Part shown: positions 3,001-43,765 of the stretch, piece by piece
Layout of the letters: the number at the start of each line of letters is the position of its first letter
Numbering within the stretch: position 1 is the stretch's first letter
Source of the DNA: Bacillaceae bacterium
GTDB lineage: Bacteria; Bacillota; Bacilli; JACDOE01
NCBI GenBank assembly: GCA_017656255.1
Contig: JACDOE010000003.1
Location: 457 to 64,456, forward strand
Direction of reading: 5' to 3'
DNA: 64,000 nucleotides
Position numbers and translations under genes: made by a program
The notes under the pieces: model-generated
What the model was told of the DNA's origin: nothing
The model's database searches: none
Seen by the model: only the letters and a program-made list of their open reading frames with translations

Positions 3001-6000
3001 TTTGACATAACCGGCCGGCGTGTATTCATAGCTCGTCCAGATCCCTTCCGGATCCACTTCTGTTTTCAGTTGTCCTTCTTCATCATAGGTGTAACGGGTC
3101 GTGTTGCCTCGTTCATTAGTAAACCGAATCCGCAGGCCACGGGGATCATACTCATAGCGGCGGGTGACCTTTTCACCGCCGATTCTTTTCCCTTCACGGG
3201 TTTCTTCAATAACTCGGCCTTCTTTATCATAGCCGTACACCGTGATATTTCCCAGCGGATCTTCCTGTACCACCAGGTTTCCCTGGCCGTTATAGGCCAG
3301 CTTCACTTCCGTTTTCGGTGTATCATCAGATTCATTCGCTTCTCCCAATTGTTTAAAGGACGTGACATATCCTTCCCCGTTGTAGCCAAAGATGGCGGCA
3401 TTGCCTTCCTGGTCGATTTCCAGGACACGATTGCCCGCTGTATCAAACGCCATATAACTGACACTATTATCGGGCCACTCCGTCTTGATTTTACGTCCGG
3501 AGACATCATAAACATATTCATATTCACGAATTTCCAGATCTCCGTTTCGATCATTGTATTCTTTTTTCAACGTCATCCGGCCGTGATCGTCATAATCATA
3601 GCGGATTTTCAGTCCGGAAGGCTCTTCCAATTTCTCCAGTTGTCCCAGGGCGTTAAAGTCATATTCCGTCACGGCATAATTGTTGCCGTCCAGCTGCTCA
3701 CGCACTTTTTTCTTGTTGCCCCAGGCGTCGTAATCATAGTCCACCCGCTGTGTTTTGCCATCACGGGTGACCTGTTCGATGGTATAGTCCAGTTGTTCAT
3801 ACTGGTTGTAAACATACTGTTTGGTTTTGCCTTCCTCGTTGACATGTCTGGTGATTTTACCAAACACATCGTACTCATAGGTTTCCTCTTCATTGGACGG
3901 ATGAATGGTTTTCACGACATTGCCCTGCGTATCATAGACCGTTGTCGTCTCGTGATAGACCAGCTCCCCGTCTTCATCAAAGGCAGGCGTAAGGGTCACG
4001 GTGGTCAGGCCTTCGTAGCGGTACTCGGTGGTGTACCCTTCCGCATCTGTCTCAGTCAAGATTCTTCCTCTGGCATCGTAGGTATACGAGCGAGTTCCAA
4101 GCACTTCATGACCGGGATAGATGGGATCGTCAGTGCCGGACTTCAGCTGTTCCCCGTCCCACTCCGGAATCGGGCCGCCGAAGGTTTCTGTTTGGACCTG
4201 GCCGTTTTTATCATAGGTATAACGGGTCCAGGATCCTTCCGGTGTTTTTTCTTCAATTAATTGGCCGATGGCATTATACCGGTATTCACTGACCAGAACC
4301 TGAGGCTCTGTTTCTTCCCAGTCAAAGGGAATTTCGTCATGAAGATGAACCGAGCGGTACTCCTTTTCTATGACCCGGCGATCCCACAGATCATACACAT
4401 ACTCCGTTTTTCCCCCGTCGGGGCTGGTGACGCTTTTCAGGCGCCCGTATTCATCATACTCATAGTCCGTCGTCCACTCGCCGGGATCCGTGGTTACTTT
4501 ATCCCGTTCGCCGGCCAGGTTGTACACGGTGGTGATCGTTTCTCCCACCGGATTTTTTTCCTCGATTAACAGGCCTCGGTTATCATACTTGTACTTATAG
4601 ACCAGAGGTTGTTCGGATGACCCAACCGGTTTTGATCTTTCCTCGGTCACATTCCCCATGCCATCCACTGTGTATGTGGTTTCCAGGGTTTCAGAGGTAC
4701 GGGTGATCTGGTGCCCCCCCTCATCATAGGTGTAAGCCATCGATTCCCTGCGGGTCTGGGCGCTCTTTTTGTCATACTGGACATGGGTCTGTACCTGTCC
4801 GAGTGTGTTGTAAGTCCATTCCTCAATCAGGCCATTGGGATGCTCGGCATAGATCCGCTGCCCCCGGTTGTTATACCGGTAGGTTGACGTTTTAGGCGTG
4901 CTGGAATCCGGATACAGGGTTTCCGAGATCCGGTTTCCGTTTTCATCGTACTGGTATGCATATTCCGCCTGATCCATGGCTCCGTCGCCGCTGGTATCAT
5001 AGCCATACCGGAGCAGATTTCCTTCCGCGTCATATTGATAGAGCGTGCTGTTTCCTTCACCATCCCGTTTTTCAATCAACAGTCCCCGGTCATCGTAATA
5101 TTTGGCCGTTACGATCTGGTACGGAGTGGTGCGGCCAAACGGATCACTGACATACTGTACTTTGACCATGGCCGTCAACTTTTTGCCGCTGGTGACCGGA
5201 ATATACTCCACCCGGTAGTCGTAAGGCTGTCCGCTTTCACGAATCAGATCATTATATTCGTTATACGAATAGGTCATGACGCGTCCTGCCGGGCTCCGCA
5301 TCATGGAGAGGCGATCCCGGTCATCATACTGGTACTGGGTCGTCCGCCCCAGCGGATCCGTGATTTTGACCAGGTTATTGCCGTCATAGAGATAATGGGT
5401 TTCGGCCGTTTCCAGGCCGTTTTCCGTTTCGACGACCTGTCTTTTCAGAGCGGGGCGTCCCTGTTCATCCCAGTGCCATTCATATTGGCCCAGGGGATTC
5501 ATGACGACGGCATACCCATCTTGATACCGGGCGCCGATAAATTCTTCGACCCCATCCTGGCTCCGGGTCATACTGATCCGTTCAATCCGGTTCTCACTCC
5601 CGTATTGCCAGGTGGTGGTCACCTGTCTGGCGTCAGTCACGGTATGGAGGCGGTTCAATTCATCATAGGTAAACGTGGTGGTATATCCCATCACATCGGT
5701 ATAGGTGTTGAGACGGCCCTGTTCGTCATAACCGAATCCAATTGAGCGCGTCGTTCCCGCTTCCGGACCGGGCGCTTCAATCTTTTCCAGACGCCCGGTT
5801 TCCTCATTGTAATGAAACACGATTTTATGATTTTGTGTGGTGGTGAGGATTTCCTTCAGCCGGTAATTCATGCGCAGGTATTCCGGCACTTCTTCATACT
5901 TGTAGTCGATATAATTTCCGTAACGGTCATGATGCTGCAAAATGCGGCCGTCCGGTGTAAACAGGTCGTAGGAGAGATCCTCCCAGGTGATCAGATACTG

Positions 6001-7583: not shown

Positions 7584-7684
7584 TCCGGTACGGCAGCAGG
7601 GCAGTCATGGCCGTCGGCTGGCGGCGGCTTTAGACTCCCGGCTTTGTGTCGCCTCCTTTCGGCAGACGAAACCTTTTCTCCGGA
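7584..7684 (-). promoter_or_regulatory. Candidate c-di-GMP-I (GEMM-I) riboswitch aptamer
   Basis: Minus-strand RNA reads UCCGGAGAAAAGGUUUCGUCUGCC-GAAA-GGAGGCGACACAAAGCCGGGAGUCUAAAGCC..GACUGCCCUGCUGCCGUACCGGA. The GAAA..GACaCAAAGCC..CUAAA core resembles the Vc2 aptamer as I remember it. P1 can form as UCCGG/CCGGA. The 5' junction deviates from the GGCAAACC consensus. Confidence 0.5.
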
Positions 7685-7906: not shown

Positions 7907-8128
7907 ATAGCGGAATTTTTTTCCGCTATTATGCGGTTTTCCTCGATTTTTTAATAAATAGGTGAGAAAATTTCCGCTATGTGCCTCAATTAAAAATTAT
8001 GCGAAGTATTCGACCCTATTAGCGGAACATTTTCCCCCTATTATTTGGAATCTCCCGCGTTTTGGAGAAATAGAGGAACAAACTTCCGTTACATATTGCG
8101 GTCCTTGATATGATTCGAGGTATTCGAC
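7907..8128. repeat. Hairpin/dyad-module array, locus L1 (4 modules)
   Basis: Modules: ATAGCGGAAtttttttCCGCTAT, AATAGGTGAGAAAATTTCCGCTAT, ATTAGCGGAACATTTTCCCCCTATT, AATAGAGGAACAAACTTCCGTTAC. Box ATTATGCGAAGTATTCGACC at 7996-8015 sits between modules 2 and 3. The same architecture recurs at 16341, 31497 and 43650. Confidence 0.85.
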
Positions 8129-11564: not shown

Positions 11565-12185
11565 ATGAATGATTTTCCTTCGTCCATGCGGCATTTGATG
11601 AAGTTGGCAGAAAAAATGGGTAAAATTGGTCTCCATAACCATTCATGGGATATGTTAAAGCAGATGAAAGATTTAATGGATGATGATTTCTGGTCGGAAC
11701 TGGAGAAGTTGCAACAGTTGGGTGTTCACGGTGCGGACCGGGACAGTCATGATAAAGATGACACCGTTATTCAAAAGAATAAGTCCGGCAACAAAAAACG
11801 ATCGTCAAATGTTTATAATTTGAAGTATGCGGCGGATACCCGATCAAAAGAGTATGTAAATCCTCCCGTTGATGTTTATCAAACCATCGGTAAGGTGATT
11901 GTCTGTTGTGCGTTGCCGGGGCTGGATAAGAACAGTTTAAAGATCTCGCTTACGGAAGGTCGCCTTTTGATGCTGGAAGGTAAAATCAGACAACATGATT
12001 TTGGCCGAAATCCCGAATTTGTGGTTCAGCAGGAGCGACAGCACGGTAAGTTCCTGCGCCGGATTGAACTGCCGTGCCGGGTGAAGTCTGATGATGTCAG
12101 TAAGTCGTATAAAAACGGGATTCTGGAGATGGTATTTTCCAGGGTGATCGGGGATGAGAGTGAGTATCTGGAGGTGGATTGGTGA
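11565..12185 (+). CDS. Hsp20/alpha-crystallin family protein with long N-terminal extension (spore-coat CotM/CotP-like context)
   Basis: C-terminal ~100 aa reads [58 protein letters not shown], an alpha-crystallin domain pattern. Confidence 0.8.
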   Translation: MNDFPSSMRHLMKLAEKMGKIGLHNHSWDMLKQMKDLMDDDFWSELEKLQQLGVHGADRDSHDKDDTVIQKNKSGNKKRSSNVYNLKYAADTRSKEYVNPPVDVYQTIGKVIVCCALPGLDKNSLKISLTEGRLLMLEGKIRQHDFGRNPEFVVQQERQHGKFLRRIELPCRVKSDDVSKSYKNGILEMVFSRVIGDESEYLEVDW

Positions 12186-12194
12186 CATCTATTT

Positions 12195-12938
12195 TTACAA
12201 TCCCGCTAGATATAACGCCAGCTCTCTTATCCTGTCATCCGTCTTTTTCTTTATTTCATCTCGTTTACCGTTTGATGAATAGAAGGTATCTCCTGTAATG
12301 ATGTGATCAGACAGATTAAGTATTCCTACCGCTTTTTTATTAAAACGCCTTGCTACTGCCAGTGTCGTAGCCGTTTCCATATCGACCCCGATATGGCCCT
12401 TTTCCGCCCATTTTTGGACCACATCACGGGTTTCCATCATGATGGCACTTGTTGTAAAAACCGTTCCCGTTGTATATCGATACCCCTTCTCTTCACAAAA
12501 GTTTATGGCGGCTTCGACAAGCTCACGATCAGATTTTACGATTTTTTCTTCCTTTAGATACCAGTGTGAAACACCATCCCCCATCTCAGCAGCCGTTACA
12601 ATCAGGATATCACCAAACTGAACATGACGGGACAGGCAACCAAAATATCCTGTTTGAATAAAAACATCCGTTCCCAGAGTAGCAAATTGATGAGATATGA
12701 CAGCCGCCGCTGGCCCACCAAATATATTCGCAAAACCGATTTTTCTATGATGTAAATTTCCTATCATTGAATTCCAGTGAGGTTGCCAGATGTCCTCAGA
12801 CATCATTTCCTTCCATAATGATAAGTTATGCTCATGTTCCCAGGCACCATGTAATATAAAAGATTCCGGCACCTTATCTTCTTCTATATCGAAAGCTGTC
12901 AGCCAATCTTGCTTTGTAAATTCGCCGTATAGTTTCAA
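12195..12938 (-). CDS. PNP/UDP-family nucleoside phosphorylase-like protein (cargo gene 1)
   Basis: ..GFANIFGGPAAAVISHQF.., ..ILIVTAAEMGDG.., ..GHIGVDMETATTLAVA.. resemble PNP_UDP_1 motifs. TTG start after a GGGGGG SD. Its stop lies 9 nt from the hsp20 stop. Confidence 0.7.
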   Translation of the reverse strand: MKLYGEFTKQDWLTAFDIEEDKVPESFILHGAWEHEHNLSLWKEMMSEDIWQPHWNSMIGNLHHRKIGFANIFGGPAAAVISHQFATLGTDVFIQTGYFGCLSRHVQFGDILIVTAAEMGDGVSHWYLKEEKIVKSDRELVEAAINFCEEKGYRYTTGTVFTTSAIMMETRDVVQKWAEKGHIGVDMETATTLAVARRFNKKAVGILNLSDHIITGDTFYSSNGKRDEIKKKTDDRIRELALYLAGL

Positions 12939-12997
12939 TCCTTATCCCCCCTTCTGGATGATATGGTTTCATTTCAATATATTTTTAATATATTAAC

Positions 12998-13095
12998 ACA
13001 AAAAATGGATAGCCGATCATGCTATCCATCTCAAAAACATTCACTGACAGACATCGTCAATCCCATTCAAACCTCTGCTCGCGCAAATGGGTGAG
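12998..13095 (-). pseudogene. Third remnant of a yuiH-like 3' end plus terminator hairpin
   Basis: The reverse complement of 13057-13095 reads LTHLREQRFEWD*, compared with the intact YuiH C-terminus DPWKEQRFAWD*. Hairpin ATGGATAGC-N7-GCTATCCAT plus a T-run at ~13001-13030 parallels the yuiH terminator. Confidence 0.7.
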
Positions 13096-14262
13096 TTAGA
13101 ACTGGATTTCATACGTCTTCACCTTATTGATACGATGCACATTGTCGTTGATGATTTCAAAATCTACCACATCAAATCTTAAGTCGTGATCTCCAAACTG
13201 TAAGTTGTATATAAATGTATGATCATTGATTTTGATTTGGCTGCTGATGTCATAGTGAGACTTGACAAGTGTATTTTCTTTGATTTTCCCAACCCGGATT
13301 GTTTTATCTTTAACAAAAGCAAATTCAGGTTGTGTCGGATGCCAATCCAGTTCTTCAGTCATCGTTATCTCGAAAACAGATTCTTCTACCAGATCCTGAA
13401 TAACCGTCCGGTCTTTTGTTTTATCTACATAGGAGATAAATCTTTTGTCCGGCGATACATTCAAAATATAAGCGTTTTCTTTAAACTTTATGGTCTCACC
13501 TGTGCGTTGGTCATGTGCAAGAATCACCTGTCGATGATCTTCGGTGATTCCATCAAAATAAATACGTCCATCGATCCCCCAGACACTTTTCACGAACCAT
13601 GAACCCGGTGCGTTACTTTCTTTTTCAACTCGATACACCTGCGTCCACTCTTTTTGGTGAAAGCGATAAACGTAAACGACTTTAGATGCCATTTGTTCCA
13701 TGGAGGCAACCATGAACTTCCGGCTTTGATCAATATCGACACTGTAGATATCAGAAATGTTCTCGGGGAATATGATTTCTTTCTTTTTGCCCGTCTCTAC
13801 ATGCAGGATGTAAAGATGGTCTTTCGTCAAGTCAGACAGAATGACTTCTTGTTCATTCAATATTTTGACAGCGGAAGGAGAACGGTTGTGTCGAAAATTA
13901 TAGTTTTTCCATGAATACATGATGGGATAAGAGGATATTCGATCTTCACCATAATAAATGGTCACAAATGGTATCGGCCCTACCATTGGGTCGTGGTCGT
14001 TTATCCCTTTCTTCTCAGACAGACATTTCTTACAGCTTTCTAGATCATAGAATCTCACCATTTCCTGTCCTTCTTTGATTTTGACCATACGGAATTGATG
14101 AGTGTCAGTCTCAGTTAGTTTAGCATCTTCAATCTTATTAGGTTGTTTAATGCCATTGTTCACCACCCGGGATCCAACCCCATCCTCAATCGGCTGGCAG
14201 GCATTTAGTTGTATGAAAATGAAGAAGATAATGAGAATCTGTAATAACTTTATAAACCTCAT
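13096..14262 (-). CDS. Lipoprotein, beta-rich (TolB/DPP-IV-type propeller-like), function unknown (cargo gene 2)
   Basis: Signal peptide plus lipobox (IFFIFIQLNAC). 388 aa, AT-rich by eye. RBS AAGGTGA. Confidence 0.65.
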   Translation of the reverse strand: MRFIKLLQILIIFFIFIQLNACQPIEDGVGSRVVNNGIKQPNKIEDAKLTETDTHQFRMVKIKEGQEMVRFYDLESCKKCLSEKKGINDHDPMVGPIPFVTIYYGEDRISSYPIMYSWKNYNFRHNRSPSAVKILNEQEVILSDLTKDHLYILHVETGKKKEIIFPENISDIYSVDIDQSRKFMVASMEQMASKVVYVYRFHQKEWTQVYRVEKESNAPGSWFVKSVWGIDGRIYFDGITEDHRQVILAHDQRTGETIKFKENAYILNVSPDKRFISYVDKTKDRTVIQDLVEESVFEITMTEELDWHPTQPEFAFVKDKTIRVGKIKENTLVKSHYDISSQIKINDHTFIYNLQFGDHDLRFDVVDFEIINDNVHRINKVKTYEIQF

Positions 14263-14393
14263 TGTTTCACCTTTTAATCGAATAGGTTATGACGTGATGG
14301 ATTAACTTTTTCTTGTCATCCGTATATTTCACGAAGTCATTGTCCGAGAATTGATAGACTAAATAAAAGAACAATAAATCTACTATTAGACAG

Positions 14394-14402
14394 ATTATAC
14401 CA
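14394..14402 (-). promoter_or_regulatory. Extended -10 promoter element (TGGTATAAT) for the lipoprotein gene
   Basis: Minus strand reads ..ccattataTGGTATAATctg.. ~130 nt upstream of ATG 14262. No clear -35. Confidence 0.4.
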
Positions 14403-14438
14403 TATAATGGTTTGAAGCGGTTCGGGTAAACGTATGTT

Positions 14439-14644
14439 AAAAAAATGGACAACCCCTCGGCCATGCATTTTTTATCAATAATTAAAAAAATACCATCAAT
14501 ACCATGCAAACCTCTGCTCGCACCAGGGATCGTTTCATATGTTATCCGTTCCGTTCCCAGAATCCTTCCCTGTCTTCCTTCATAGACTCTATCCCGCGCA
14601 CCCTTTTGGCACTTTTCCAGAAATACAGATGCGGCACCACGGCA
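14439..14644 (-). pseudogene. yuiH 3'-end fragment (duplicate of 15572-15778), disrupted
   Basis: Aligns base-for-base with the intact yuiH tail plus terminator. It reads [33 protein letters not shown] and then, after a frame shift, DPWCEQRFAWY*. Confidence 0.8.
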
Positions 14645-14780
14645 AATTCCTGCGCCGGATTGAACTGCCGTGCCGGTGAAGTCTGATAATGTCAGCAAGA
14701 CCTATAAAAACGGGATTCTAAAGATGGTTTTTACCAGGGTCATCGGGGATGAGAGTGAGTATCTGGAGGTGGATTGGTGA
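14637..14780 (+). pseudogene. hsp20 3'-end fragment (duplicate of 12041-12185), frameshifted
   Basis: High identity by eye (roughly nine in ten positions) to the hsp20 tail, including the identical last ~40 nt and the TGA. It has a 1-nt deletion (gtgccggTgaag vs gtgccggGTgaag) and no upstream coding part. Confidence 0.85.
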
Positions 14781-14837
14781 GTTTATATCCACGCTTCACC
14801 TGCAAAAAATTGAGTAAAGTACGGATACGTTTTCTTG

Positions 14838-14865
14838 TTTACAACAGGTGAAGATGTTATATAAT
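14838..14865 (+). promoter_or_regulatory. Sigma-A-like promoter for the NYN gene
   Basis: TTTACA (14838-14843), 16-nt spacer, TATAAT (14860-14865). Confidence 0.45.
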
Positions 14866-14926
14866 ATATATACAGAATTAATCGCTGTTGTTCACCAGTG
14901 TGTGGATGGCAGGTCAAGAGACAGCA

Positions 14927-14969
14927 GGGAGGTGCTTTAGTGCACCTCCCTCTATTATTTTAGGAGGTG
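14927..14969 (+). promoter_or_regulatory. Leader hairpin with decoy-SD/anti-SD/SD arrangement
   Basis: GGGAGGTGC-tttagt-GCACCTCCC is a perfect 9-bp stem. It is followed by TCTATTATTTTA and the true SD GGAGGTG (14963-14969). Confidence 0.45.
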
Positions 14970-14974
14970 TCTTG

Positions 14975-15532
14975 TTGGAGAATAGGACAGCTATTTTTAT
15001 TGACGGGGGATATCTGGATTCCATTCTTTTAACCAAAGGTAGAGCAAGAATTGATTACGAAAAATTGATCACCACCATGAGGGAGGATATTCCCCTTATT
15101 AGAGCTTATTATTATCATTGCCTTCCTTACCAATCTTCCAAATCTACAAAAGAAGAGTCTGATCAATTTGCACAGGCCCAACGATTTTTTAGAAGACTAA
15201 ATCGATTGGACAGCTTTACGGTTCGTCTTGGAAAACTGGCTTTTCGAGGTATAGACGATGAAGGAATTCCCATCTATGAACAAAAGAGAGTAGATGTTTA
15301 TTTGGCAACCGATCTGGTTATGCACAGTACAAAAAGAGTGATTAGTCATGCTGTTCTTTTAACAGGCGATAGTGATTTTATCCCTGCAATTGAGATAGCA
15401 AAATCCGAAGGTGTCCACATCACACTATATTATTGTAAGGATGACAGGTTAAGACCTCATGATGAATTGATTGATGCTGTTGATAATAGAAGAAAAATAA
15501 CACAAGATTTGATCGAAACCTGGAAAAGATGA
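14975..15532 (+). CDS. NYN/LabA-like (DUF88) domain protein, putative RNase (cargo gene 3)
   Basis: AIFIDGGYLDS.. and ..HAVLLTGDSDFIPAIEIAK.. are NYN/LabA motifs. TTG 14975 lies 5 nt after GGAGGTG. The track start at 14888 reads through the leader hairpin. Confidence 0.75.
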   Translation: MENRTAIFIDGGYLDSILLTKGRARIDYEKLITTMREDIPLIRAYYYHCLPYQSSKSTKEESDQFAQAQRFFRRLNRLDSFTVRLGKLAFRGIDDEGIPIYEQKRVDVYLATDLVMHSTKRVISHAVLLTGDSDFIPAIEIAKSEGVHITLYYCKDDRLRPHDELIDAVDNRRKITQDLIETWKR

Positions 15533-15571
15533 TGAATTAAGATCTAAAATGACTGCTTATGAGCAAGAAAC

Positions 15572-15601
15572 AAAAAAATGGACAGCCCCTCGGCCATCCA
15601 T
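15572..15601 (-). terminator. yuiH terminator
   Basis: Minus strand ATGGAtgGCCgaggGGCtgTCCAT plus TTTTTTT, downstream of stop 15628. Confidence 0.5.
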
Positions 15602-15627
15602 TCCTTATCATTCATTAAAAAATACTG

Positions 15628-16218
15628 TTAATCCCATGCAAACCTCTGTTCCTTCCACGGGTCGCCATACCTATGATATCCGTTCCGCTCCCAGAATCCT
15701 TCCCTGTCTTCCTTCATAAACTCTATCCCCCGCACCCATTTGGCACTCTTCCAGAAATACAGATGCGGCACCACGGCACGAAGCGGCCAGCCGTGATCCG
15801 GCGTCAACTCCTCACCATTGTGCTTGCGCGCTAGCAGGCTGGTCTCTCGCATGAAATCCTCCAGCGGAAGATTGGTAGTCCAGCCTTCCTCGGCGTGCAG
15901 CATGACATAGCGCGCTTCCGGTTTAATTTTCACATCCTTCAGGAGGTCCCGGACCAGCACCCCTTCCCAGGTATTATCCAGCTTCGACCAGCCGGTGACA
16001 CAGTGTATATCATTGTGGACCGTCGTCTGAGGCAACTGGAGAAATTCCTCCCACGTCCAGCGTTTTTCTTCTTCCACCAGGCCGAAAACACGAAGATCCC
16101 AGTTTTCCAGGTCAACCTTCGGCACATCCCCATAATGTAAAACAGGAAATCCCGTTGTGACACGCTGGTTGGGCGGTACCCGATCTCGCTTATTCCTCTC
16201 ATCGCTTCCCATCGTCAC
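15628..16218 (-). CDS. yuiH: Molybdopterin-binding oxidoreductase, sulfite-oxidase/MsrP-like (YuiH-like)
   Basis: 196 aa with ..[41 protein letters not shown].., the molybdopterin oxidoreductase domain pattern. Size and context match B. subtilis YuiH. Confidence 0.8.
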   Translation of the reverse strand: MTMGSDERNKRDRVPPNQRVTTGFPVLHYGDVPKVDLENWDLRVFGLVEEEKRWTWEEFLQLPQTTVHNDIHCVTGWSKLDNTWEGVLVRDLLKDVKIKPEARYVMLHAEEGWTTNLPLEDFMRETSLLARKHNGEELTPDHGWPLRAVVPHLYFWKSAKWVRGIEFMKEDREGFWERNGYHRYGDPWKEQRFAWD

Positions 16219-16340: not shown

Positions 16341-16540
16341 GTCGAAAATAATAAGGAACTTTATTTCCGCTATACCTTGAAAAAGAAGAATTTTAAATTT
16401 TTAAGTGAAAAATATTCCGCTATCCGCTTCAAATACTTCGCATAATATTGAGTTGCTTAACGGAAACCATTTCCTCTATTTTTTATAAAATGGGTAAAAC
16501 GTGGTGAAATAAAGGAAAAGATTTCCGCTATTATCCCGGT
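16341..16540. repeat. Hairpin/dyad-module array, locus L2 (4 modules, inverted relative to L1/L3)
   Basis: Modules: AATAAGGAACTTTATTTCCGCTAT, AAGTGAAAAATATTCCGCTAT, TTAACGGAAACCATTTCCTCTATT, AATAAAGGAAAAGATTTCCGCTATT. The box appears as its reverse complement, CAAATACTTCGCATAAT, at 16430-16446. Confidence 0.85.
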
Positions 16541-31126: not shown

Positions 31127-31496
31127 TTATAACCTCCTCGTCACATAAAACGTCTTTTTCTTATCATATCAGACAATGGACTGAAAAATTTTGAAAATTC
31201 CTTTTTTGAGGGAAAAGCAGGTTATATGGAGTGACTGGTTAAGTAAAAAGAGGAAAATATTTTATAGTACCGAATTAATACCAACAATAAAAATTTGACA
31301 GGGCACAGATCCGGATGGCTATTACTGGGAAGTCGCTAATTGGAAATTTGATGACCATGATATGTTAATGATCAAAAAAGGCAGGAACGCCTGAAACAGA
31401 AACGAACAATGTCACGAATCGGTAGCAACTGCTGTTGCCCAATCACTTTACCCTGCTCAGTTGATGCTGAGGCGGAAGAAGACAGTCCCGCCTTCT

Positions 31497-31762
31497 AATA
31501 GCGGAAATTTTTTCCGCTATCCTTCCATTTCGCCGGTTTTGAAAAAAATAACGGAAAAGGTTTCCGTTAATCAGACCATTTCCTATTATGCGAAGTATTC
31601 AACCGGTAGTAACGGAAATCTTTTCCCCTATTTTTTATAGATCACCCCGTTATCATAAAATAGCGGAAAAGATTTCACCTATTTTCCCTGGCTAGTATTC
31701 AAAATAAAATAAACCAATCAATCATCCTTTGTCGGTAACGGTAACTCTTTTTTCCGCTATCG
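31497..31762. repeat. Hairpin/dyad-module array, locus L3 (5 modules)
   Basis: Modules: AATAGCGGAAATTTTTTCCGCTAT, AATAACGGAAAAGGTTTCCGTTAA, AGTAACGGAAATCTTTTCCCCTATT, AATAGCGGAAAAGATTTCACCTATT, GGTAACGGTAACTCTTTTTTCCGCTAT. Box ATTATGCGAAGTATTCAACC at 31585-31604. Confidence 0.85.
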
Positions 31763-43649: not shown

Positions 43650-43765
43650 AAAGAGCGGAAATTTTTCCGCTATTATTTTTGATTTCCACCATTCTTATAA
43701 TAGAAGAAAAAAGTTCCGCTATTTTTTGCATTTGATATTATGGATATTATGGAAAGTGTACGATT
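43650..43765. repeat. Hairpin/dyad-module array, locus L4 (truncated, 2 modules plus degenerate box)
   Basis: Modules: AAGAGCGGAAATTTTTCCGCTATT, AATAGAAGAAAAAAGTTCCGCTATT. Degenerate box ATTATGGAAAGTGTACGA at 43746-43763. Confidence 0.75.

Follow-up and report, generated by a model that had tools for sequence, protein, structure and literature searches.

How does the end of one gene come to be welded, head to tail, to the end of another gene that lies at the opposite border of the same locus? The question is raised by a 342-nt piece (positions 14439-14780) of a 64,000-nt stretch of DNA from a Bacillaceae bacterium (GenBank assembly GCA_017656255.1, contig JACDOE010000003.1), hereafter the window, in which truncated copies of the 3' ends of yuiH and hsp20 abut between unrelated accessory genes. 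It is a scar left by recombination, of a kind already known and without a function of its own. As to how it arose, the balance tips modestly towards a diverged hsp20-[cargo]-yuiH allele having been added to the resident allele instead of replacing it.

Between 11.5 and 16.3 kb of the window, the order is hsp20, a PNP-like gene, a lipoprotein gene, the 342-nt piece, an NYN gene, yuiH and copA. The left core gene of the locus, hsp20 (11565..12185, + strand), is intact and encodes an alpha-crystallin family protein of 206 aa (Pfam HSP20, E = 3.9e-11); its last 151 nt are the parent of the hsp20 fragment. The right core gene is the intact yuiH (gene 15628-16218, - strand; 15572..16218 with its terminator T1 at 15573-15606), encoding a sulfite-oxidase-like molybdopterin oxidoreductase (Pfam Oxidored_molyb, E = 4.7e-47), and it is the parent of two yuiH remnants. 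Followed in the direction of yuiH, the locus thus reads yuiH with T1, the inverted NYN gene, the hsp20 fragment joined to the yuiH fragment with terminator T2, the lipoprotein gene, a further yuiH tail with terminator T3, the PNP-like gene and, convergently, hsp20.

The yuiH remnant within the scar (14439..14644, - strand) consists of T2 with its spacer (14439-14495) and the last 50 codons of the gene (14496-14644); aligned with 15572-15778, it is identical at 180 of 208 positions (86.5%), with 3 gap columns. The hsp20 3' fragment (14638..14780, + strand) carries the last 48 codons, less one nucleotide, and its alignment reaches from 14631 to 14780 against 12035-12185 (137/151 identical, 90.7%; 1 gap). 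These pairs are the two strongest self-matches in the window (blastn E = 3e-64 for yuiH and 2e-53 for hsp20), with local-alignment z-scores against shuffled sequences of 111 and 91, respectively; their longest exact runs are 28 nt in the yuiH repeat and 39 nt in the hsp20 repeat, and the direct repeats lie 2595 nt apart for hsp20 and 1133 nt apart for yuiH. An earlier, sequence-only reading of this DNA had placed both duplicates at these coordinates and had estimated by eye that the flanks differ at roughly one position in ten; the alignments agree with the former and put the divergence at 9-13%.

The illegitimate joint, CACGGCA (14638..14644, assigned to no strand), was located by direct reading and by alignment. 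At this point GCGGCACCACGGCA is followed by AATTCCTGCGCC, and the parental strings, given correctly by the sequence-only reading, are CACGGCACGAAG in yuiH (15772-15783) and CACGGTAAGTTCC in hsp20 (12042-12054). The seven nucleotides are the overlap of both fragments and are common to both parents; the match to the resident hsp20 extends over 5 nt (CACGG) and would extend over 7 nt if the donor hsp20 allele had GGC. The joint sits in a 19-nt patch at which yuiH and hsp20 agree in 14 positions. Its b/a (head-to-tail) arrangement at a microhomology is that of a tandem duplication; the equal content expected of a simple one is lacking, as the intervals 12186-14438 and 14781-15571 share no similarity and contain different gene families. 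Homology breaks off precisely where hsp20 has its stop codon and where the yuiH terminator finishes, which are the boundaries of the core genes. Alignment, blastn self-comparison and gene content therefore bear out the geometry, the microhomology and the unrelated cargo that had been claimed.

Both fragments have decayed, though not both by a 1-nt indel as had been supposed. That description fits the hsp20 fragment, in which GGG has become GG near 14675; the yuiH fragment is inactivated by truncation, a 2-nt deletion in the coding part and an in-frame change of TAT to the stop codon TAA, its 1-nt insertion lying in the non-coding spacer. The yuiH fragment also carries the changes W>R, F>S, K>C and D>Y, all at positions where 119 homologues show no variation or strong conservation. 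From the intact gene the hsp20 fragment differs by 11 substitutions, 7 of them at third, 4 at first and none at second codon positions. A 46-aa open reading frame at 14539-14679 (+ strand) crosses the yuiH fragment in antisense and continues in frame into the hsp20 fragment, to be stopped only by the 1-nt deletion; the joint would have coded, before that deletion, for a chimeric protein ending in the hsp20 C-terminus.

The pattern of the substitutions speaks to where the fragments diverged. For the coding parts of both fragments combined (n = 25 substitutions), the proportion of synonymous differences (pS) is 0.23 and that of nonsynonymous differences (pN) is 0.054, a ratio of 0.23; binomial tests give P = 0.0003 against neutrality and P = 0.02 against a ratio of about 0.55, which corresponds to one copy having been a pseudogene ever since a duplication in place. 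Moreover, the yuiH fragment keeps an ancestral M, found in 113 of 119 homologues, at a residue where the intact gene has R, and it is therefore not a decayed copy of today's yuiH. These differences favour a history in which the fragments would have diverged as working genes in another lineage and decayed only after truncation. The cargo has a GC content of 0.35-0.41 against 0.45-0.58 in the flanks, and the synonymous excess, the low-GC cargo and the ancestral residue all point towards a foreign origin of one unit; neither tracts of identity nor composition appears to single out which of the two units is the incomer. Parsimony is the stronger argument: additional precise replacements would have to follow a duplication in place, and even then the different cargo and the 9-13% divergence of the flanks would call for an imported allele.

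The addition of a second allele could have proceeded as follows. A linear fragment from a related strain or species, spanning from inside hsp20 to inside yuiH, would have entered the cell, where its ends would have been joined together at the CACGGCA microhomology to give the joint of the yuiH and hsp20 3' ends; the circle so formed may then have entered the chromosome by one homologous crossover, either within the 150 nt of hsp20 homology or within the 206 nt of yuiH homology. A variant in one step, homology-facilitated illegitimate recombination (HFIR), in which a homologous anchor in one core gene is combined with an illegitimate joint at the microhomology, would give the same product: hsp20, cargo A (PNP-like gene, older yuiH tail and lipoprotein gene), the yuiH fragment joined to the hsp20 fragment, cargo B (NYN gene) and yuiH. 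Afterwards, both truncated fragments would have decayed neutrally. HFIR is reportedly described in the work of de Vries and Wackernagel of 2002, Prudhomme and colleagues of 2002, and Meier and Wackernagel of 2003. The direct repeats of such a product could resolve the tandem to either of the single-cargo alleles.

The locus also holds a third yuiH remnant (12995..13092, - strand), overlooked in the sequence-only reading, which comprises the last ~12 codons of the gene (..PF[+1 nt]REQRFEWD*, stop codon at 13057-13059), a spacer and terminator T3 (13002-13032). It matches the yuiH fragment of the scar at 24 of 26 nt (z = 15.6 against the full yuiH copy) and abuts the stop codon of the lipoprotein gene. 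T3 is homologous to T1, and the differences in its stem convert two wobble pairs into Watson-Crick pairs. Predicted folding energies are -19.8 kcal/mol for T1, -15.4 for T3 (z = -4.5) and -10.7 for T2 (z = -1.8); T2, which follows only a pseudogene fragment, is weakened, and T3 probably now terminates the lipoprotein gene, to judge from its position and predicted fold. All three yuiH tails of the window have the chromosomal ..EQR.. form with a homologous terminator behind each, the intact gene ending in ..KEQRFAWD* before T1. The third tail shows that the locus has been struck more than once, and it may be the record of an earlier, similar event that would have inserted the lipoprotein gene between yuiH and the PNP-like gene.

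Relatives of the locus were sought for a donor. Exact look-ups of the yuiH and hsp20 proteins of the window returned no match, and among 5.8 billion proteins hsp20 has no detectable relative but itself. In a contig scan of related genomes with yuiH, the best protein identity was 72%, and none of the 80 loci had hsp20 or the cargo nearby, apart from weak PNP matches. The closest yuiH proteins overall are 77-78% identical and stand in other contexts: the closest (78%) has no downstream synteny, and locus L081 shares the side on which copA and yuiH are adjacent. The slot 3' of yuiH differs in every relative examined, being occupied by HD, NYN, TetR, DinB, RCC1-like, Spo0M, PNP or PGA_cap genes, and the hsp20 flank was found in no other genome. 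The proposal that two diverged alleles had been joined is partly supported, by the synonymous bias of the differences, the unrelated cargo and the geometry, and has no counterpart in the form of single-cargo alleles among the relatives compared.

In some relatives, the same gene end appears to receive mobile elements. Orphan yuiH tails were searched for with the C-terminal motif in six-frame translations of all fetched loci, and with a degenerate DNA pattern in viral contigs. They occur in Brevibacillus panacihumi, Paenibacillus sedimenti and Cohnella silvisoli, directly after an NYN gene in B. borstelensis, and next to NYN genes in P. naphthalenovorans and a metagenome contig; tails of similar length are present in loci L001, L006, L009, L083 and L097, and three more were found in viral contigs. 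One provirus carries yuiH, a convergent large serine recombinase (LSR) gene and a lysogeny module together at one of its ends and, 51.8 kb off at the other, an orphan 13-codon tail; in P. naphthalenovorans, yuiH with an LSR gene and an NYN gene with an orphan tail span ~11.7 kb; and in the metagenome-assembled genome (MAG) with the closest yuiH (L082), an LSR fragment directly follows yuiH. Compared across these sequences, the yuiH 3' end, ~39 nt before the stop codon, is apparently an attachment site for LSR elements that bring a replacement tail. The cases come from Paenibacillus, a Brevibacillus-like host and a Bacillaceae MAG (L171 36-1936 with L168 12406-12444; L172 10001-12045 with L084 6594-6632; L082 10571-11093). 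The 13-codon tail supplied by the element overlaps the end of the recombinase gene and reads ..W[QK]SQR.. where the recombinase gene is complete (two cases) and ..WKNQR.. in the MAG, and the original ..KEQR.. tail is orphaned at the far end of the element, beside a conserved arm (AGTWAC-N13-AY/GG).

A separate observation concerns Brevibacillus panacihumi W25, in which an 84-nt direct repeat (L001 10541-10623 and 13035-13118; 77/84 identical) corresponds to the last 14 yuiH codons with the terminator. Between its copies lies an island of 2.4 kb that has no mobility gene and codes for a membrane protein of 97 aa and a secreted protein of 485 aa, the latter without a Pfam match. The architecture is that of the window's lipoprotein gene with its third tail.

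One challenge to the scar is that it does not exist as assembled: the chromosome would carry hsp20, the NYN gene and yuiH, and the 2.6-kb segment 12186-14780 would belong to a separate circle or to another strain, threaded in through the 39-nt repeat. The assembly was checked with the independent Logan contigs of the only public run that contains the organism (X1, identified with three probes). These place the joint within one contig of 2616 nt (12156-14771) at a single-copy depth of 91, against 85 and 83 for the flanking contigs, and they break only at the 39-nt exact repeat (12147-12185 = 14742-14780), where the depth is 199. The parents share no 30-mer at the joint, which therefore is no graph chimera and is real in the reads. 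Both resolutions are consistent with a graph broken at that repeat, the segment is slightly deeper than its neighbours, and the run, with 58 Mb of contigs, resembles a mixed sample. Against this, the three pieces lie within 10% of each other in depth with the repeat at twice that level, the segment has no replication gene, and reads longer than 39 nt would have let the original assembler resolve the repeat because its copies differ just outside it; at 80% likeness, no variant contigs were found in runs X1-X3, only short spurious matches. On the same grounds of equal depth, missing replication gene and differing flanks, a separate 2595-bp circle is unlikely, and an artefact of assembly as a whole is very improbable. 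Granted a real joint, its head-to-tail form with a short microhomology is the exact product of a RecA-independent tandem duplication, and the locus could have duplicated in place by unequal exchange between sister chromosomes at CACGG, with later divergence and with replacement or differential deletion of the cargo of one unit; in a variant, a larger duplication would have been trimmed later by a microhomology deletion. The 7, 4 and 15 differences at codon positions 1, 2 and 3 also fit one constrained and one neutral lineage. Such a history requires at least two further precise events with endpoints exactly at the hsp20 stop codon and the terminator end, as well as short pseudogene fragments that persist through a synonymous divergence of ~0.23; the replacement of cargo would still import a foreign allele, and the synonymous excess (P = 0.02) runs counter to it. 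We consider duplication in place unlikely.

Site-specific integration would explain the locus differently, with the stacked yuiH tails as attL/attR relics of LSR elements, the cargo as the remains of decayed elements and the hsp20 piece carried in by one of them. The provirus, P. naphthalenovorans, L082 and the orphan tails make the yuiH 3' end such a site in relatives; the third tail of the window is close to the orphan length (36 against 39 nt), NYN genes stand beside yuiH tails in four lineages, and a weak match to the element arm between T1 and the NYN gene (z = 3.5, P ~0.008 before correction for six comparisons) is a hint only. The joint, however, lies 150 nt and not ~39 nt before the stop codon, and is a fusion to hsp20, not to an element arm. 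The window tails are of the EQR type and have chromosomal terminators, whereas tails borne by elements have ..SQR.. or ..NQR.. and continue into the recombinase gene; no arm motif was found next to tail 2 or tail 3, a tblastn search with the provirus LSR found nothing in the window, the genes of the locus contain no recombinase domain, and hsp20 is lineage-specific and absent from every element examined. As the origin of the scar, integration of this kind is improbable; the attachment hotspot explains the variability of the slot, not the joint, and perhaps the origin of the NYN gene. The addition of an imported allele has points to answer as well. The substitution test rests on 25 differences and loses significance if synonymous sites mutate ~1.5 times faster; because the 39-nt exact repeat breaks the graph, the short-read contigs alone fit both the tandem order and a chromosome plus a 2595-bp circle; and no donor-type single-cargo allele was found, in a setting of no close relatives and one public run with the organism. 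Strict HFIR fits imperfectly, as the window duplicates recipient DNA and has no coupled deletion; with classical HFIR being insertion with deletion, the circular, single-crossover route must be assumed. At the time of PMC6382021, HFIR had not yet been described in Bacillus subtilis.

The cargo consists of three genes. Cargo gene 1, PNP-like (12195..12938, - strand; 247 aa), is a divergent member of the nucleoside phosphorylase/AMP-nucleosidase superfamily (Pfam PNP_UDP_1, E = 3e-22), every NCBIfam match being below the cut-off; it has the orientation of yuiH and stands directly after the oldest yuiH tail and its terminator. A PNP_UDP_1 gene also directly follows yuiH in several Paenibacillus (weak tblastn matches in L017, L019, L021, L030 and L080, confirmed by Pfam in L017 and L080), which suggests that yuiH-PNP may be the older arrangement and that the lipoprotein gene entered later. 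Cargo gene 2 (13096..14262, - strand) encodes a predicted lipoprotein of 388 aa with the signal ..FIQLNAC; its family is very rare, a search of 1.84 billion representative proteins having yielded only 16 relatives. Its C-terminus is complete, since relatives align to within ~3 residues of the end; no relatives were found in metagenome contigs, and searches of Pfam, PADLOC and NCBIfam gave no significant match, only sub-threshold ones, including one to an SGL (SMP-30/gluconolactonase-like) region. The recorded gene call for the lipoprotein starts 32 codons later and would be without the lipoprotein signal peptide. A role of the cargo in defence was considered and rejected: PADLOC gave weak NYN matches only, and there was no other toxin, immunity or defence match.

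Cargo gene 3 forms a module (14838..15532, + strand) of promoter (TTTACA-16-TATAAT, 14838-14865), leader with a hairpin and a terminator-like stem (14866-14974) and NYN/LabA-like gene (TTG start at 14975, 185 aa, to 15532). Conserved forms of the promoter and leader lie upstream of NYN homologues whose genomic surroundings are quite unlike one another, and cargo B is a self-contained module. After the -10 box, the leader has a 9-10-bp hairpin (CGCUACUGUUC ... GGAUGGUAGG) followed by CAAGA; one of its pairs covaries between A-U (7 sequences) and G-C (4 sequences) and is never broken. Further 3' come a stem that resembles a terminator and varies in sequence, then a U-run and an option for pairing between the Shine-Dalgarno sequence (SD) and an anti-SD. 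In the 1.8 Mb of DNA fetched, the core motif is present at 14 places, each of them immediately upstream of an NYN homologue (at least 61% identity), and the leader was also located at L083 ~5880-6000, L084 ~5870-6000, L086 and L089-L096. Rfam has no match to it at the gathering score or at E <= 10. By these features the leader is a candidate for a new cis-regulatory RNA that would act as an attenuator or bind a protein.

Elsewhere in the window, intergenic regions at 7907-8086, 16409-16533, 31496-31676 and 43654-43722 hold repeats of 22-bp palindromic boxes (ATAGCGGAAA-N2-4-TTTCCGCTAT), 2-4 per region, with one set between yuiH and copA; they look like operators for some regulator. A c-di-GMP-I riboswitch aptamer lies at 7589-7683 (- strand; Rfam RF01051, 43.1 bits, above the gathering score).

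Among known systems, the scar is closest to what single-crossover (Campbell-type) integration and HFIR leave behind. In Escherichia coli, 56 of 60 recombinants expected to be HFIR products were duplications of the homologous segment, of 109-950 bp, and duplications of this sort mark the integration of a recircularised molecule through a single crossover (PMC3240628). Classical HFIR, as that paper summarises it, combines insertion with deletion of recipient DNA and uses microhomologies of 3-10 bp. The window has homology on one side, a short GC-rich microhomology (5-7 nt), ~1-2.6 kb of added DNA and the homologous segment on both sides of the insert, so that both the shared segment and the microhomology range of such integrations are found in it. 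Unlike the laboratory cases, the event is natural, old and inferred from sequence only, and what was inserted is another version of the resident locus instead of unrelated DNA. Illegitimate and one-sided recombination have been much studied in the laboratory and seldom caught in genomes; here a natural gene acquisition in a spore-forming bacterium of the Bacillales has left its illegitimate joint as well as its duplicated homology preserved, and the scar indicates that a small accessory-gene slot can grow by the addition of alleles instead of their replacement.

At Rhs loci, displacement of 3' ends is said to have been described by Jackson and colleagues in 2009. Serial one-sided displacement of the HFIR type has been proposed (PMC5361080) for Rhs and for the effector-immunity arrays of Vibrio cholerae's type VI secretion system (T6SS). 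The window resembles these arrays in having an intact gene followed by orphan 3' ends, each with its downstream gene (yuiH; tail 2 with the lipoprotein gene; tail 3 with the PNP-like gene). It differs from them in that the yuiH tails all code for the same conserved C-terminus in place of alternative toxin domains, in that its cargo does not consist of immunity genes, and in that one orphan is joined to part of the gene from the other border of the locus. With the LSR prophages at yuiH it shares the host gene and region, the orphan tails 3' of an intact gene and the cargo between them, NYN included; unlike them, it has no recombinase or element arm, its tails and terminators are chromosomal, and its joint is off the crossover position. 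Nor is it an integron-like cassette array, as no integrase was found in the locus and the repeats are gene 3' ends with terminators, not attC sites.

Minimal mobile elements of Neisseria are cassettes exchanged by transformation between conserved flanking genes (PMC3787668, PMC1797815). Like them, the locus offers unrelated alternative cargo between the same conserved genes, with homology that stops at the core-gene boundaries and without mobility genes; in contrast to a clean swap, it keeps two alternatives in tandem in a single genome through an illegitimate joint. Taken with the attachment site found among relatives, the scar marks the yuiH 3' end as a place where accessory genes have entered repeatedly in Brevibacillus, Paenibacillus and related lineages. 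A doubtful extension of this view is that a yuiH tail with its terminator serves as a portable homology arm, by which a cargo gene placed between the yuiH body and an orphan tail with terminator could move through homologous recombination into any genome with yuiH, irrespective of what is downstream there and without a recombinase of its own; if so, the window with its two stacked tails, B. panacihumi and Paenibacillus sedimenti would represent a recombinase-free cassette system, and the tandem of the window a resolvable two-allele intermediate. Set beside these systems, the scar does not reveal a new mechanism or functional system; it is an ordinary but well-preserved trace of DNA acquisition.

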